Shown: positions 55,550 through 61,028, numbered from the stretch's first letter. The stretch: 64,000 nucleotides of DNA from Candidatus Latescibacterota bacterium (GCA_965243025.1 CBDETY010000003.1:4160001-4224000), one strand, 5' to 3'. Made by a program: numbers and translations. The notes: generated by a model not told the origin, from the sequence alone.

Positions 55550-56785
55550 ATGAGCCGGCGGATCGCCGTCACCGGCCTTGGGGCGGTGACGCCTCTCGGC
55601 TCCGGCGTGGACCGTTTCTGGAACCGCCTCTGCGCCGGCCAGTCGGGCGTCGGTCCGATCACCCTTTTCGACGCCAGCGCCTTCCCGGTGCGCATCGCCG
55701 GGGAGGTAACCGGGTTCGCGCTGCCTGCCGAAATCGACCGCAAGCGGGCCCGCCGCCTCGACAGGTACGCCCTCTTCGGGGTCGCAGCGGCGTTGCAGGC
55801 ATGGCGCGACGCCGGAATCGAAGATCGCGACCCGTATCAGTCCGGAATCGTTCTCGGCTCCAGCCACGGCGGCGAGAACACCGCCCTCCAGGCGGCGGCC
55901 GCCCTCGGCCCGAACCCGTTCCCGAAAGCCGCGAGTCCCTTGCTGATCCCGCGCATGCTCAACAACATGGCGGCGGCCCAGGCGGCGATGCTGCTCGACC
56001 TTCGCGGCCCTGGCTTCTCCCTGTCCTCGGCGTGCGCCACCGGCGGCCACGCCATCGGCGAGGCATCCGAAATTATCCGCAGGGGGGATGCAGAGGTGAT
56101 GATCGCCGGGGCCGCCGAGGCCTGCATAACGCCCCTGACCCTTGCCGGCGACCACGCCCTCGGGGCGCTGTCGCGGCGCAACGCCGAGCCGCAGCGGGCC
56201 TGCCGCCCCTTCGACCGGGACCGGGACGGATTCGTGCTCGCCGAGGGCGCGGCAGTCCTCGTCCTCGAAGAGCGGGAGCATGCCAGAAAACGGGGAGGCC
56301 GCGTCTACGCCGAGCTCTCCGGGTACGGGGCAACCACGGACGGAATACACGAAACCCGCCCGGAACCGAACGGCGCCGCCGCCGCCCGGGCCATCGCCCG
56401 GGCCCTGGAGAAGTCGGGCACCGAACCGGGCGAGGTCAGCGCCGTCTTCGCCCACGCCGCCGGCACCCCGTCAGGGGACCCCGCAGAGGTTCGCGCCCTG
56501 GGCGCTTCTCTCGGGGAAACGCTCACGACCATTCCGGTGACGGCGATCAAGTCGATGACGGGCCACATGTTCGCCGCCTCGGGGGCGGCCCAGGCGGTCG
56601 CCGCGGTAAAGGCGATCGAGTCGGGATCCCTCCCCCCTACCATAAACTGCGAGCACATCGTCGGGATGGAGATCGCCTGCGTGCGGGGCGAGATGCTCCG
56701 AAGGCCGCTCACGCGGGTGCTTTCGAATTCGTTCGGCTTTGGCGGCCACAACTCCGTCCTCCTCTTTGCGGCCCCCATGCCCTGA
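55550..56785 (+). CDS. Beta-ketoacyl-ACP synthase II (FabF)-like paralog heading the biotin operon
   Basis: MSRRIAVTGLG, SACATG (Cys), RPFD.DRDGFV, FAHAAGT (His), KSMTGH (His), SNSFGFGGHN. Confidence 0.9.
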   Translation: MSRRIAVTGLGAVTPLGSGVDRFWNRLCAGQSGVGPITLFDASAFPVRIAGEVTGFALPAEIDRKRARRLDRYALFGVAAALQAWRDAGIEDRDPYQSGIVLGSSHGGENTALQAAAALGPNPFPKAASPLLIPRMLNNMAAAQAAMLLDLRGPGFSLSSACATGGHAIGEASEIIRRGDAEVMIAGAAEACITPLTLAGDHALGALSRRNAEPQRACRPFDRDRDGFVLAEGAAVLVLEEREHARKRGGRVYAELSGYGATTDGIHETRPEPNGAAAARAIARALEKSGTEPGEVSAVFAHAAGTPSGDPAEVRALGASLGETLTTIPVTAIKSMTGHMFAASGAAQAVAAVKAIESGSLPPTINCEHIVGMEIACVRGEMLRRPLTRVLSNSFGFGGHNSVLLFAAPMP

Positions 56786-56854
56786 CCCTTTCAGTGGCTG
56801 CGGAAACCCCGCAGGGGAAACACCTGCCGGACTTAGCCTACAGGACCCATATAG

Positions 56855-57847
56855 ATGAATGAGATTTCCACCGTTCCCTGCTTCGCGGCTATCGCCGACA
56901 AGGCGATCGCCGGTGACCCCCTCACGCGCGACGAGTGCGCCGAGGTTCTCGCCGCTCCGGACGGCGAGGTGCCTGGCCTGCTCGCCGAGACCTGGCGGGT
57001 GCGCCGCCGCTTCTGTGGCGACAAGGTGCACCTGCATGTCCTGATGAACGCCAAAAGCGGTCTCTGTCCCGAGGACTGCGGCTACTGCTCGCAATCGCGC
57101 GTTTCGGAAGCGGCGATCGAGAAGTACCCCATGGTCAGCCCGGAGCGGCTGCTCGAAGAGGCGCGCGCCGCCAGGCGCTCGCGCGCCAGGCGTTTCTGCA
57201 TCGTCACCAGCGGACGGGGGGCATCGTGGCGCGAGGTTGAATACCTCGCCGGCGCCGTACGCACCATCCGCGAGGAGGTCGACATCGGTATATGCGCCTG
57301 CGTCGGACTGCTCGACGAAGAGAAGGCAAGGGCGCTGAAGGAAGCCGGGGTCGACCAGCTGAACCACAACCTCAACACCAGCGAACGGTTCACTCCCAGC
57401 ATCGTCACCACCCACCGCTACAGCGACCGCGTCAGGACGCTGCAGGCGGCGCGGAAAGCAGGCCTCAACCTTTGCAGCGGCGCGATCTTCGGTATGGGTG
57501 AAACCGACGGGGACGTGATCGACGTCCTCATGGCGCTGCGCGGCCTCGACCCGCAGTCGATACCTGTAAACTTCCTCCATCCCATCGACGGCACCCCCCT
57601 CGAGGAGACCTGGAGGCTGACTCCCCTCCATTGCCTGCGGATCCTCTGCCTGGCGCGGCTGCTGCACCCGCACCGGGAGATCCGCGTCGCCGGCGGACGC
57701 GAGCTGCATCTGCGTTCGCTGCAACCGCTCGCGCTCTACGCGGCGAACTCGATCTTCGTCGAGGGCTATCTCACCACCCCCGGCCAGGGCACGAGGGAGG
57801 CGCTGCAGATGATCGAGGACATGGGATTCGAGGTCGAAGAGGCGTGA
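56855..57847 (+). CDS. bioB: Biotin synthase
   Basis: NAKSGLCPEDCGYCSQS, NHNLNT, CSGAIFGMGE, PVNFL, RVAGGRE. Confidence 0.97.
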   Translation: MNEISTVPCFAAIADKAIAGDPLTRDECAEVLAAPDGEVPGLLAETWRVRRRFCGDKVHLHVLMNAKSGLCPEDCGYCSQSRVSEAAIEKYPMVSPERLLEEARAARRSRARRFCIVTSGRGASWREVEYLAGAVRTIREEVDIGICACVGLLDEEKARALKEAGVDQLNHNLNTSERFTPSIVTTHRYSDRVRTLQAARKAGLNLCSGAIFGMGETDGDVIDVLMALRGLDPQSIPVNFLHPIDGTPLEETWRLTPLHCLRILCLARLLHPHREIRVAGGRELHLRSLQPLALYAANSIFVEGYLTTPGQGTREALQMIEDMGFEVEEA

Positions 57848-59196: not shown

Positions 59197-60334
59197 CTTC
59201 CTGCGCTCGGAGCGCGGCCGTCTCGAGCGGCTCGGCCTGCGCCGGTCGGTTGTGACCCCCGAGAGGCGTGACGGGGTCCGGGCCTGGCTAGAAGGCCGCG
59301 AATACGTCCTCTTCACATCGAACGACTACCTCGGGCTCGCCGCGCACCCCGAGGTGATCGCAGCCGCCGGCGAGGCCGCCCGCCGGTTCGGGACGGGTGC
59401 GGGGTCTGCCAGGCTGCTGCACGGGTCCACACCCCTGCACGAGGATCTGCAGGAACGGCTGGCGCGGCTTACAGGCAAGCAGTCCTCCCTGCTGTTCAGC
59501 TCGGGATACATGGCCAACCTCGGGCTGCTCTCCGCCCTGGCCGGAAACGGGGACGCGATCTTCTACGACGAGCGCGCCCACGCCTCGATCATCGACGGGG
59601 CGAGGTTGTCGCGCGCCACCGCTCTCCCCTACCGGCACAACGACGCCGGCGGGCTCGACGATCTGCTGCGTAAGACCCACGCCCGCCGACGCATGGTGGT
59701 CACCGAGAGCGTCTTCAGCATGGACGGGGACCTGGCGCCCCTCGAGGCCCTGGGGGAAACGGCTTCCCGCCACGATGCCCTGCTGGTCGTCGACGAGGCG
59801 CACGCCATCGGGGTCTTCGGAGAGGGCGGCGGCCTCCTGGGACGCTTGGGCCCCGACGCCCCGGCCGTCGTCACAGGCACGCTTTCGAAGGGGCTCGGCT
59901 CGGTCGGCGGTTTCGTCGCCGGGGATCCGGCCCTGATCGAGTTCCTCATCGACCGCTCCCGCACCTTCATCTTCGATACCGCCCTGCCGCCGTCGGCGGT
60001 TGCCGCCGCGGCCGCCGCCCTCGACGTCGCGCGGAACGAGCCCTGGCGCCGGAAGCGGGTCCTCGACCTCGGCGAAACCCTGCGCTCCAGCTTGAGCCGC
60101 CTCGGCTACCCTCCTTCCCGCTCCGACTCGCAGATCGTGCCGGTGCTCCTCGGCAGGCCTGCCGCCGCGGTCGCCGCGGAGGAGGATCTCAAGGCGCACG
60201 GAATCCTGGCGCGGGCTGTGCGGCCCCCGGCGGTGCCCCGCGGAACGTCGCGGATCCGCTTCGGAGTAACCGCGGCTCACGAGGAGGAGCACCTGCGGCA
60301 GGTCGCCGCGGCGATGGAGTCCTTCCGTGGGTAG
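59153..60334 (+). CDS. bioF: 8-amino-7-oxononanoate synthase
   Basis: SNDYLGL, SGYMAN, HASIIDG, FSMDGD, DEAH, TLSKG, RPPAVP. Confidence 0.95.
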   Translation: MGSTASPGPPGPWADFLRSERGRLERLGLRRSVVTPERRDGVRAWLEGREYVLFTSNDYLGLAAHPEVIAAAGEAARRFGTGAGSARLLHGSTPLHEDLQERLARLTGKQSSLLFSSGYMANLGLLSALAGNGDAIFYDERAHASIIDGARLSRATALPYRHNDAGGLDDLLRKTHARRRMVVTESVFSMDGDLAPLEALGETASRHDALLVVDEAHAIGVFGEGGGLLGRLGPDAPAVVTGTLSKGLGSVGGFVAGDPALIEFLIDRSRTFIFDTALPPSAVAAAAAALDVARNEPWRRKRVLDLGETLRSSLSRLGYPPSRSDSQIVPVLLGRPAAAVAAEEDLKAHGILARAVRPPAVPRGTSRIRFGVTAAHEEEHLRQVAAAMESFRG

Positions 60335-61028
60335 GATCGTTCTCGTGACCGGGACCGACACCGGCGTCGGCAAAACGGTCGTTTCCGCATGGCTGGCGTG
60401 GAAAGCGTCGCGGGCGGGCAAGGTTGCCCTGATCAAGGCGGTCCAGACCGGAGCCGATCCCGAGGTCGGCGGGGACGAGGCGTTCTACCGCGCCGCCCTC
60501 CGCGGCATCGACGTTTCCCTGGGAACGCTGGCATCCTTCCCCGAACCGATGGCGCCGCTGATCGCCGCGCGCCGGGCTGGACGCCCGCTCGATTTCGAGG
60601 CCCTCACGCGGCAGTGCGAGTCCGTGGCCGCGGCTCACGACCTCACCCTGGTGGAGGGCTCGGGTGGGATGCTGGTACCGATAGACGAGAAACGGGATTT
60701 CGCCGACCTCGCCCTGCGCCTCGACGCCGCCCTGGCGGTCGTTGTCCGTCCCGGTCTCGGGACGCTGAATCACACCGCCCTCACCCTCGAGGCGGCAGAG
60801 CGGCGGGGGCTCGAGGTTCCCCTGCTGATCTGCAGCGGAGCCTCTCGGGAACCGGACGCGGTCGAGCGCGAGAACCTGCGTTTCTTCGCGGCGATGCGGG
60901 AGGCGCGCCAGCCGCGCACCCCGATGGCGTTGCTGGTGATCGAGCGCGCCCTCGAGGCCGACGCGGCCAGGCCTGAACGGCTCGCCGTCAGGACCGAGGG
61001 GCCGTTGCCCGGGTGGCTGTCCGGCTGA
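60327..61028 (+). CDS. bioD: Dethiobiotin synthase
   Basis: GTDTGVGKT, KAVQTG, VEGSGG, LGTLNH. Confidence 0.95.
   Translation: MGRIVLVTGTDTGVGKTVVSAWLAWKASRAGKVALIKAVQTGADPEVGGDEAFYRAALRGIDVSLGTLASFPEPMAPLIAARRAGRPLDFEALTRQCESVAAAHDLTLVEGSGGMLVPIDEKRDFADLALRLDAALAVVVRPGLGTLNHTALTLEAAERRGLEVPLLICSGASREPDAVERENLRFFAAMREARQPRTPMALLVIERALEADAARPERLAVRTEGPLPGWLSG

Follow-up and report, generated by a model that had tools for sequence, protein, structure and literature searches.

A KAS II-type condensing enzyme encoded upstream of bioBAFD is a candidate source of biotin's pimelate moiety

In a 64,000-nucleotide stretch of DNA from Candidatus Latescibacterota bacterium (GCA_965243025.1, CBDETY010000003.1:4160001-4224000; hereafter the window), a gene for a beta-ketoacyl-ACP synthase (KAS; ACP, acyl carrier protein) of the KAS II type stands immediately upstream of an overlapping bioB-bioA-bioF-bioD block on the same strand. 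Judged from its sequence, the encoded protein is not a canonical FabF but a member of a distinct 'His/Asp-gate' clade of KAS II enzymes. It probably serves biotin synthesis in some capacity, and we assign a probability of about 0.58 to the more specific reading that it is a dedicated KAS II making 3-ketopimeloyl-ACP from an omega-carboxy primer, with the housekeeping FabG, FabZ and FabI finishing the pimeloyl chain. The arrangement of the five genes was first pointed out in an earlier note on this DNA, and both the coordinates and the family assignments given there are confirmed here.

Family assignment of the KAS depends upon the breadth of the model used. The protein scores 449.2 bits against the NCBIfam fabF equivalog TIGR03150, below the cutoff of 493.75, and 437.2 bits against the broader KAS II subfamily model NF005589, above the cutoff of 387. 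It is 44% identical to E. coli FabF, equal to it in length, and free of insertions or deletions around the active site. A homologue search returns a graded series of proteins, running from 98% down to approximately 50% identity, that share the unusual motifs of the KAS, with canonical FabFs appearing at 52% identity or less. These relatives are currently annotated 'beta-ketoacyl-ACP synthase II'.

An alignment of 193 sequences (the query, a plasmid-borne copy of E. coli FabF, FabFs from genomic loci, and full-length database matches) was split on the residue found at the position of E. coli Ile108, giving 85 His-type, 103 canonical and 5 other sequences. A maximum likelihood tree was then computed for 82 of the 193 aligned sequences (IQ-TREE, LG+G4, quick search), taking every third His-type row, every second locus and every third canonical database row. 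In this tree, 29 His-type rows and one Arg variant stand opposite 48 canonical FabFs and 4 odd rows, and both flanking branches receive a Shimodaira-Hasegawa-like approximate likelihood ratio test (SH-aLRT) value of 99. The canonical FabFs on the far side of the branch span at least 15 phyla, including Chloroflexota, Planctomycetota, Cyanobacteriota and Pseudomonadota. An AlphaFold model of the KAS, built from a 53-sequence clade alignment, reaches a predicted local distance difference test (pLDDT) score of 93.6 and matches FabF structures with template modelling (TM) scores of 0.95-0.97 at 40-46% identity (TM 0.97 to P. aeruginosa FabF). The best PDB FabF match scores 343 bits, and no solved structure is closer.

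The elements required for catalysis are present in the KAS (Cys162, His302, His339, Lys334 and Phe397), and its gate is lined by His106, Glu109, Asp201 and Gln348. In E. coli FabF numbering, in which the clade signature is expressed, the substitutions I108H, L111E and F202D each occur in 85/85 His-type sequences and E349Q occurs in 84/85. None of the 103 canonical sequences has His at 108, Glu at 111, Asp at 202 or Gln at 349; position 108 is Ile, Val, Leu or Met in that set, and Phe202 and Glu349 are each found in 103/103. Further changes run through the clade, namely G198T (85/85), N301F (96%), G304A (83/85) and S333A (99%), together with Arg or His at position 271 in 82/85 and Arg at position 136 in 86%. 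Across the 85 His-type sequences there is no change at C163, H303, H340, K335, F400, T307, D265 or H268. This separate clade with its invariantly altered pocket gate upholds the view, taken in the earlier note, that the KAS is a specialised type of paralogue and not a standard FabF.

One clade member, P0052, carries Arg for His106 and His-Asp for Asp201-His202, substitutions that seem to compensate each other, as would fit two gate residues in contact. In a separate observation, P0097 combines an N-terminal half of His type (His, Glu, Asp) with a canonical C-terminal half (Tyr299, Asn301, Gly304, Ser333, Glu349); it comes from a 3.4-kb contig and may be chimeric, either in nature or through faulty assembly.

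The altered positions have a known role in FabF. According to PMC9006962, Ile108 and Phe202 form the back gate of FabF at C7-C8 of the bound chain, which lets chains longer than C8 through, the I108F substitution limits elongation to C6 to C8, and glutaryl-ACP methyl ester carried on the active-site Cys is approximately equal in length to a C7 acid. The clade puts a His/Asp pair at the gate and a Glu one turn further on. Set against this geometry, the clade pocket would be short, with a polar, partly cationic end suited to an omega-carboxylate.

The genomic setting of the KAS also departs from that of canonical FabFs. A genome scan with the KAS supplied 80 control fabF loci among the matches listed, all of them canonical, 40-47% identical to the query and drawn from many phyla. 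A homologue of bioB, bioA, bioF or bioD lies within 10 kb on either side in 0/80 of these loci, and acpP lies directly upstream in 53 of the 77 that have enough upstream DNA (56 regular-expression matches, less 3 that visual inspection rejected). The usual place of fabF is thus behind acpP and not beside bio genes. The window KAS has no acpP upstream; its neighbours are nqrA upstream and bioB downstream. Three of the Planctomycetota control loci (L051, L057 and L078) have a second KAS-like gene, approximately 35% identical to the query, about 3 kb downstream of a canonical acpP-fabF pair.

Linkage within the clade was assessed indirectly by pairing KAS and BioB matches for which the size of the longest contig is exactly equal. 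Between the 120 KAS and 119 BioB matches listed, at least 17 exact contig pairings are found, compared with 0.6 expected per non-zero offset. All pairings belong to His-type proteins, 17/93 versus 0/27 for the canonical FabFs among the matches listed (Fisher one-sided p = 0.009), and the paired KAS proteins are 49% to 84% identical to the query. Ten of the paired contigs measure only 3,359 to 25,087 bp, which leaves KAS and bioB no more than a few kb apart. NqrA, used as a control, yields one contig pairing with the KAS list and one with the BioB list, involving a KAS (86%) and a BioB (92%) that are close to those of the window. The earlier note had asked whether the clade is consistently bio-linked, and its members do share contigs with bioB well above chance.

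Taken together, these features can be arranged into a proposed mechanism. The enzyme would retain the Cys-His-His decarboxylative Claisen chemistry of the family, and replacement of the hydrophobic Ile108/Phe202 gate by an invariant His/Asp pair, with Glu at 111 and conserved Arg at 136 and 271, would create a short, polar-ended pocket that holds an acyl chain with a free carboxylate terminus. Cys162 would be loaded with a short omega-carboxy acyl primer, most likely glutaryl, delivered by ACP, by coenzyme A (CoA), or by a first round of the same enzyme acting on a malonyl primer. Condensation of this primer with malonyl-ACP would yield 3-ketopimeloyl-ACP, which FabG, FabZ and FabI (a fabI gene lies in the window) would reduce to pimeloyl-ACP for BioF, the enzyme that uses the pimeloyl thioester. 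On such a free-carboxyl route, neither methylation by BioC nor demethylation by BioH would be needed.

The finishing steps have a precedent in BioZ: purified E. coli FabG, FabA and FabI turn the free-carboxyl condensation product into pimeloyl-ACP (PMC7645780), so that a lone condensing enzyme is sufficient in principle. The proposal in the earlier note, that the KAS is a KAS II-fold analogue of BioZ acting on a dicarboxylic primer, gains partial support (from the specialised clade, the altered gate, the bioB linkage and the sufficiency in principle of a lone KAS); the pocket geometry, the substrates and the independence from BioC and BioH are features that we infer. A more demanding version of the scheme would make the KAS clade a fifth, self-sufficient entry point, in which one enzyme uses malonyl-ACP only, extending a free-carboxyl malonyl primer and then glutaryl-ACP in two rounds with the help of the housekeeping reductases and dehydratase, with no methyl ester, glutaryl-CoA or dedicated ACP, on a cassette mobile across phyla. 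We put this version forward tentatively and consider it rather improbable as a whole.

Several observations weigh against a dedicated synthase of 3-ketopimeloyl-ACP. KAS II enzymes normally take acyl-ACP primers, and the authors of the BioZ study state that they know of no evidence for glutaryl-ACP in cells (PMC7645780). The absence of a dedicated ACP, FabG and FabZ, unlike the situation in Desulfovibrio, counts against the proposal as well. Within the active site, Thr305, a conserved residue that contacts phosphopantetheine, is Ala in the close clade (24/85 His-type sequences); the His and two acidic residues at the gate (Asp201 and Glu109) make a charge pattern that does not appear obviously carboxylate-friendly; and the placement of His106, Asp201, Arg135 and Arg270, with the putative carboxylate role of the two Arg residues, is drawn from alignment to E. 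coli FabF. With regard to linkage, 76/93 His-type and 102/119 BioB matches listed have no pairing, which may reflect the extent of the listings, contigs that are short or incompletely recorded, or a true lack of the partner gene, and 3 of the 4 named Chloroflexota BioB matches (Thermogemmatispora, Tengunoibacter and Ktedonobacteraceae) lack a paired KAS. Finally, it is possible that bioC and bioH, bioW or bioE are encoded elsewhere in the genome, or that the KAS is the sole fabF.

The first alternative retains the link to biotin and changes the substrate. The KAS would be the dedicated elongating enzyme of a BioC/BioH-type route, with bioC and an esterase encoded elsewhere, and would extend the methyl esters of malonyl- and glutaryl-ACP better than a housekeeping FabF does, its polar gate contacting the ester. 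Both the bioB linkage and the altered C7-C8 gate would suit an ester-ended C5 chain equally well as a carboxylate-ended one, and the near-C7 length of glutaryl-ACP methyl ester on the active-site Cys noted above (PMC9006962) fits such a pocket. The gene content of the operon speaks on both sides. In E. coli, bioH lies apart from the bio operon, so its absence from a 64-kb window says little, which favours this alternative; bioC is commonly found within bio operons, and none lies in or next to this one. Housekeeping KAS enzymes suffice in organisms that use BioC and BioH (PMC9909488 and PMC12915131), so that a dedicated KAS would have no necessary place there, and the charged His, Asp, Glu and Arg residues of the clade would exceed what contact with an ester needs. 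We regard this explanation as unlikely.

The second alternative also keeps the KAS in biotin synthesis and assigns it another chemistry: synthesis of a different short dicarboxylate or keto-acid, decarboxylation of malonyl-ACP or supply of a primer, or dependence on a dedicated ACP, FabG and FabZ located elsewhere, as in Desulfovibrio. The changes E349Q, N301F and T305A, which surround the decarboxylation and phosphopantetheine site and so extend beyond the acyl pocket, speak for this explanation, and Desulfovibrio does use a whole dedicated module. The acylation Cys is kept in 85/85 His-type sequences, however, which argues against a decarboxylase of the KSQ type. Genes for ACP, FabG or FabZ do not adjoin the KAS, and on the contigs of 3,359 and 4,853 bp that pair KAS with bioB there would be little room for a four-gene module between the two. 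We judge a different chemistry to be quite unlikely.

A third alternative, that the KAS is simply the housekeeping FabF of its lineage and that its place upstream of bioB has no functional meaning, would account for the complete KAS II fold and its undamaged catalytic residues, the pass against NF005589, the scattered fab genes and isolated fabI of the window and the absence of a second KAS within 64 kb, but it is very improbable given a clade separate from the canonical FabFs of at least 15 phyla, the replacement of both long-chain back-gate residues in 85/85 sequences, the repeated sharing of contigs with bioB against 0/80 canonical loci listed, and the lack here of the acpP that precedes canonical fabF in 53/77 loci.

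Returning to the preferred reading of a dedicated, biotin-specific KAS II, the layout of the locus is summarised in Table 1.

Table 1. Genes and intergenic regions of the window that bear on the KAS-bio operon.
Feature	Coordinates	Strand	Details
KAS, KAS II type, 411 aa	55550-56785	+	PF00109 and PF02801 both match
KAS-bioB spacer, 69 bp	56786-56854	+	
bioB, biotin synthase, 330 aa	56855-57847	+	TIGR00433, 386.9 bits; Radical_SAM and BATS domains
bioA, adenosylmethionine-8-amino-7-oxononanoate transaminase, GTG start	57844-59196	+	TIGR00508, 479.8 bits
bioF, 8-amino-7-oxononanoate synthase, ATG 59153	59153-60334	+	TIGR00858, 421.6 bits; Aminotran_1_2
bioD, dethiobiotin synthase, GTG start	60327-61028	+	TIGR00347, 125.7 bits
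nqrABCDEF operon	49149-55103	-	divergent, upstream of KAS
nqrA-KAS spacer, 446 bp	55104-55549		presumed promoter/regulatory region of the KAS-bio operon
agcS-type Na+/alanine symporter open reading frame	61013-62653	+	downstream of bioD
FabG-like short-chain dehydrogenase/reductase (SDR)	15042-15902		
fabI	21635-22537	+	
birA	~23.4-24.4 kb	+	

The bio genes are tightly packed. The start of bioA lies across the bioB stop, with 4 nt in common, bioF and bioD overlap by 8 nt, and bioA and bioF overlap by 44 nt provided that ATG 59153 is the bioF start; the bioF score falls just below the TIGR00858 cutoff of 426.45. The same strand and the short KAS-bioB gap are consistent with co-transcription of the KAS with bioBAFD. 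No terminator-like site occurs inside the 69-bp spacer, which has no meaningful structure (fold z-score -0.82), and the nearest such site, at 56741-56758, lies within the KAS gene, with a count of such sites no higher than shuffles predict. Downstream, the agcS-type reading frame would have a 16-nt overlap with the end of bioD should it begin at GTG 61013, and a promoter-like site is found at 61052-61081. L-alanine is the co-substrate of BioF.

In the 446-bp spacer between nqrA and the KAS, no sigma-70-like site was found, and no riboswitch or other Rfam match appears at the gathering score or at E<=1; short inverted repeats are all that turned up. A BirA-operator-like palindrome, sought with a motif taken in part from the Rodionov paper, was not found in the window. 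The birA gene follows fabI within approximately 1 kb (21635-24355 for the pair) and encodes ligase and C-terminal domains only, with no helix-turn-helix (HTH) domain in Pfam. Lacking a detectable HTH, BirA is unlikely to regulate biotin synthesis here.

Gene content was surveyed across the window, which has a GC content of approximately 66%, by scanning 42 open reading frames with high GC at third codon positions against NCBIfam and 18 further frames against Pfam, some small frames falling outside the scan. Among the frames scanned, none encodes acpP, fabD, fabH, fabZ, bioC, bioH, bioW, bioI or bioZ, in agreement with the earlier note, which had reported no acpP or fabD flanking the KAS and none of the bio genes of this list in the window. 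The ACP 'DSL' motif is absent from all six frames of the window by regular expression, neither the operon nor its immediate flanks contain an ACP, FabG or FabZ gene of their own, and the KAS gene is the sole KAS of the window by tblastn. For BioE, the diiron oxygenase of a route described in 2025, no model of that name matched among the frames scanned, in libraries that may contain none. The fabI, FabG-like and birA genes lie 31-40 kb from the operon, and fabI is set apart from other fab genes; the only FabG-like gene is the SDR 40 kb away, in line with the earlier note's statement that no fabG flanks the KAS. No tRNA genes are found in the window.

Wider searches add little on the extent of the clade. 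Plasmid tblastn with the KAS matches 570 records, the best at 45% identity, and contains no clade member; an atlas search with the KAS returns generic KAS II clusters only. When representative proteins are searched with a clade profile of 53 sequences, the best 150 are dominated by multi-ketosynthase (KS) megasynthases. Thirteen proteins were fetched from this search, a sample that is uninformative on clade size, and the full signature is present in none of the six single-domain proteins among them beyond the clade's own representative, P0091. P0495 has an Arg-Gly-Gly-Glu motif, yet retains Phe202 and Glu349. Proteins of approximately 800-870 aa with tandem KAS domains (P0376, P0380, P0412 and similar) also rank highly against the clade profile; their first domain keeps the Cys and their second often lacks catalytic motifs, as in ketosynthase-chain length factor (KS-CLF) fusions, and they appear unrelated.

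The named relatives of the KAS and of its neighbours point to different origins. For the KAS they are Chloroflexota (Chloroflexaceae and Chloroflexi metagenome-assembled genomes, MAGs), and for BioB they are a Chloroflexi MAG (73%), Thermogemmatispora (68%), Ktedonobacteraceae (65%) and Tengunoibacter (64%). The named relatives of NqrA belong to Gemmatimonadota (70%) and Latescibacterota (65-67%). The KAS and BioB relatives are Chloroflexota, whereas the host does not appear to be, a pattern that suggests passage of the whole KAS-bio cassette from one phylum to another. Two contigs from relatives, of 29,457 and 32,713 bp, carry nqrA together with KAS or bioB; on these the NqrA is 66-67% identical to that of the window, but the KAS is 86% and the BioB 92% identical. 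The cassette would appear either to be far better conserved than the neighbouring nqr genes or to have been exchanged. As to the host itself, the top atlas cluster for RpoN is Planctomycetota, a weak lead that conflicts with the NqrA relatives, and in the window lptB and rpoN are neighbours and there is a weak match to a heme-binding domain of the Planctomycetes-Verrucomicrobia-Chlamydiae (PVC) type.

Within biotin synthesis, it is the making of the pimelate moiety that varies among bacteria and is still only partly charted, and many genomes with bioBAFD contain none of the four characterised routes to it. If the preferred reading is true, the clade would close gaps of this kind wherever it occurs, its named relatives being Chloroflexota MAGs. 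Its members can be annotated by a simple sequence rule: a GSSHGGE motif combined with Asp where FabF has Phe202 and Gln where it has Glu349. On the preferred reading the clade would also be a natural case of a FabF pocket re-gated to take a short, charged substrate, with a bearing on the engineering of dicarboxylic-acid and medium-chain production.

How new would such a route be? The four characterised routes are BioC-BioH, BioI/BioW, BioZ and BioE, as listed in a 2025 account (PMC12915131), and the list in the earlier note was incomplete in omitting BioE. The literature outside subscription journals and supplements yields no account of a FabF-type enzyme working alone in pimelate synthesis, or of the signature described here. 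The novelty claimed in the earlier note must be narrowed, since FabF-like KAS genes within Desulfovibrio bio clusters that lack bioC and bioH were proposed for this role in 2004 (PMC545781).

Comparison with known systems places the KAS between these precedents. With canonical FabF (E. coli FabF, Thermus 1J3N and P. aeruginosa 4B7V) it shares the fold, the Cys-His-His triad, Lys335, the Phe400 gating loop, Asp265 and His268; it differs in its sub-cutoff score, its separate clade, the clade-wide gate changes, and the presence of bioB downstream instead of acpP upstream. The I108F variant of FabF and a mitochondrial KAS in which Met replaces Ile108 show that changes at this position likewise control chain entry (PMC9006962). 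Those variants keep a hydrophobic gate, and the window KAS clade has a His/Asp pair instead.

The Desulfovibrio system, DVU2560-DVU2563, a fifth candidate route on genetic grounds, likewise has a FabF-annotated KAS inside a bioBAFD cluster, and two-round synthesis from a malonyl primer has been proposed for it. The FabF-like DVU2563 is needed in the absence of biotin, as judged by transposon fitness in a genome without bioC or bioH, and the authors speculate that hydrophobicity is reduced in the active sites (PMC10102598, 2023). In the Desulfovibrio module the KAS is accompanied by an ACP gene and by FabG-like and FabZ-like genes, and a nitroreductase-like protein is required as well, whereas the window KAS stands alone. 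The likeness of the KAS to DVU2563 is one of family and context, drawn from published descriptions.

BioZ, a FabH-type KAS III of alpha-proteobacteria that joins glutaryl-CoA to malonyl-ACP, is likewise a condensing-enzyme paralogue in a bio cluster without bioC and bioH, a likeness that for the KAS covers the operon and the open reading frames scanned in the 64-kb window. The logic proposed for the two is the same, in that a free-carboxyl primer would be converted to a 3-keto C7 chain and passed to FabG, FabZ and FabI (PMC7645780 and PMC12915131). BioZ is a Cys-His-Asn enzyme with a CoA primer (PMC7645780), whereas the window KAS is a Cys-His-His enzyme of the KAS II type, with PF00109 and PF02801. 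By analogy, then, the KAS would be an instance of BioZ-like logic in another enzyme family, and kin to the Desulfovibrio case in family and context.

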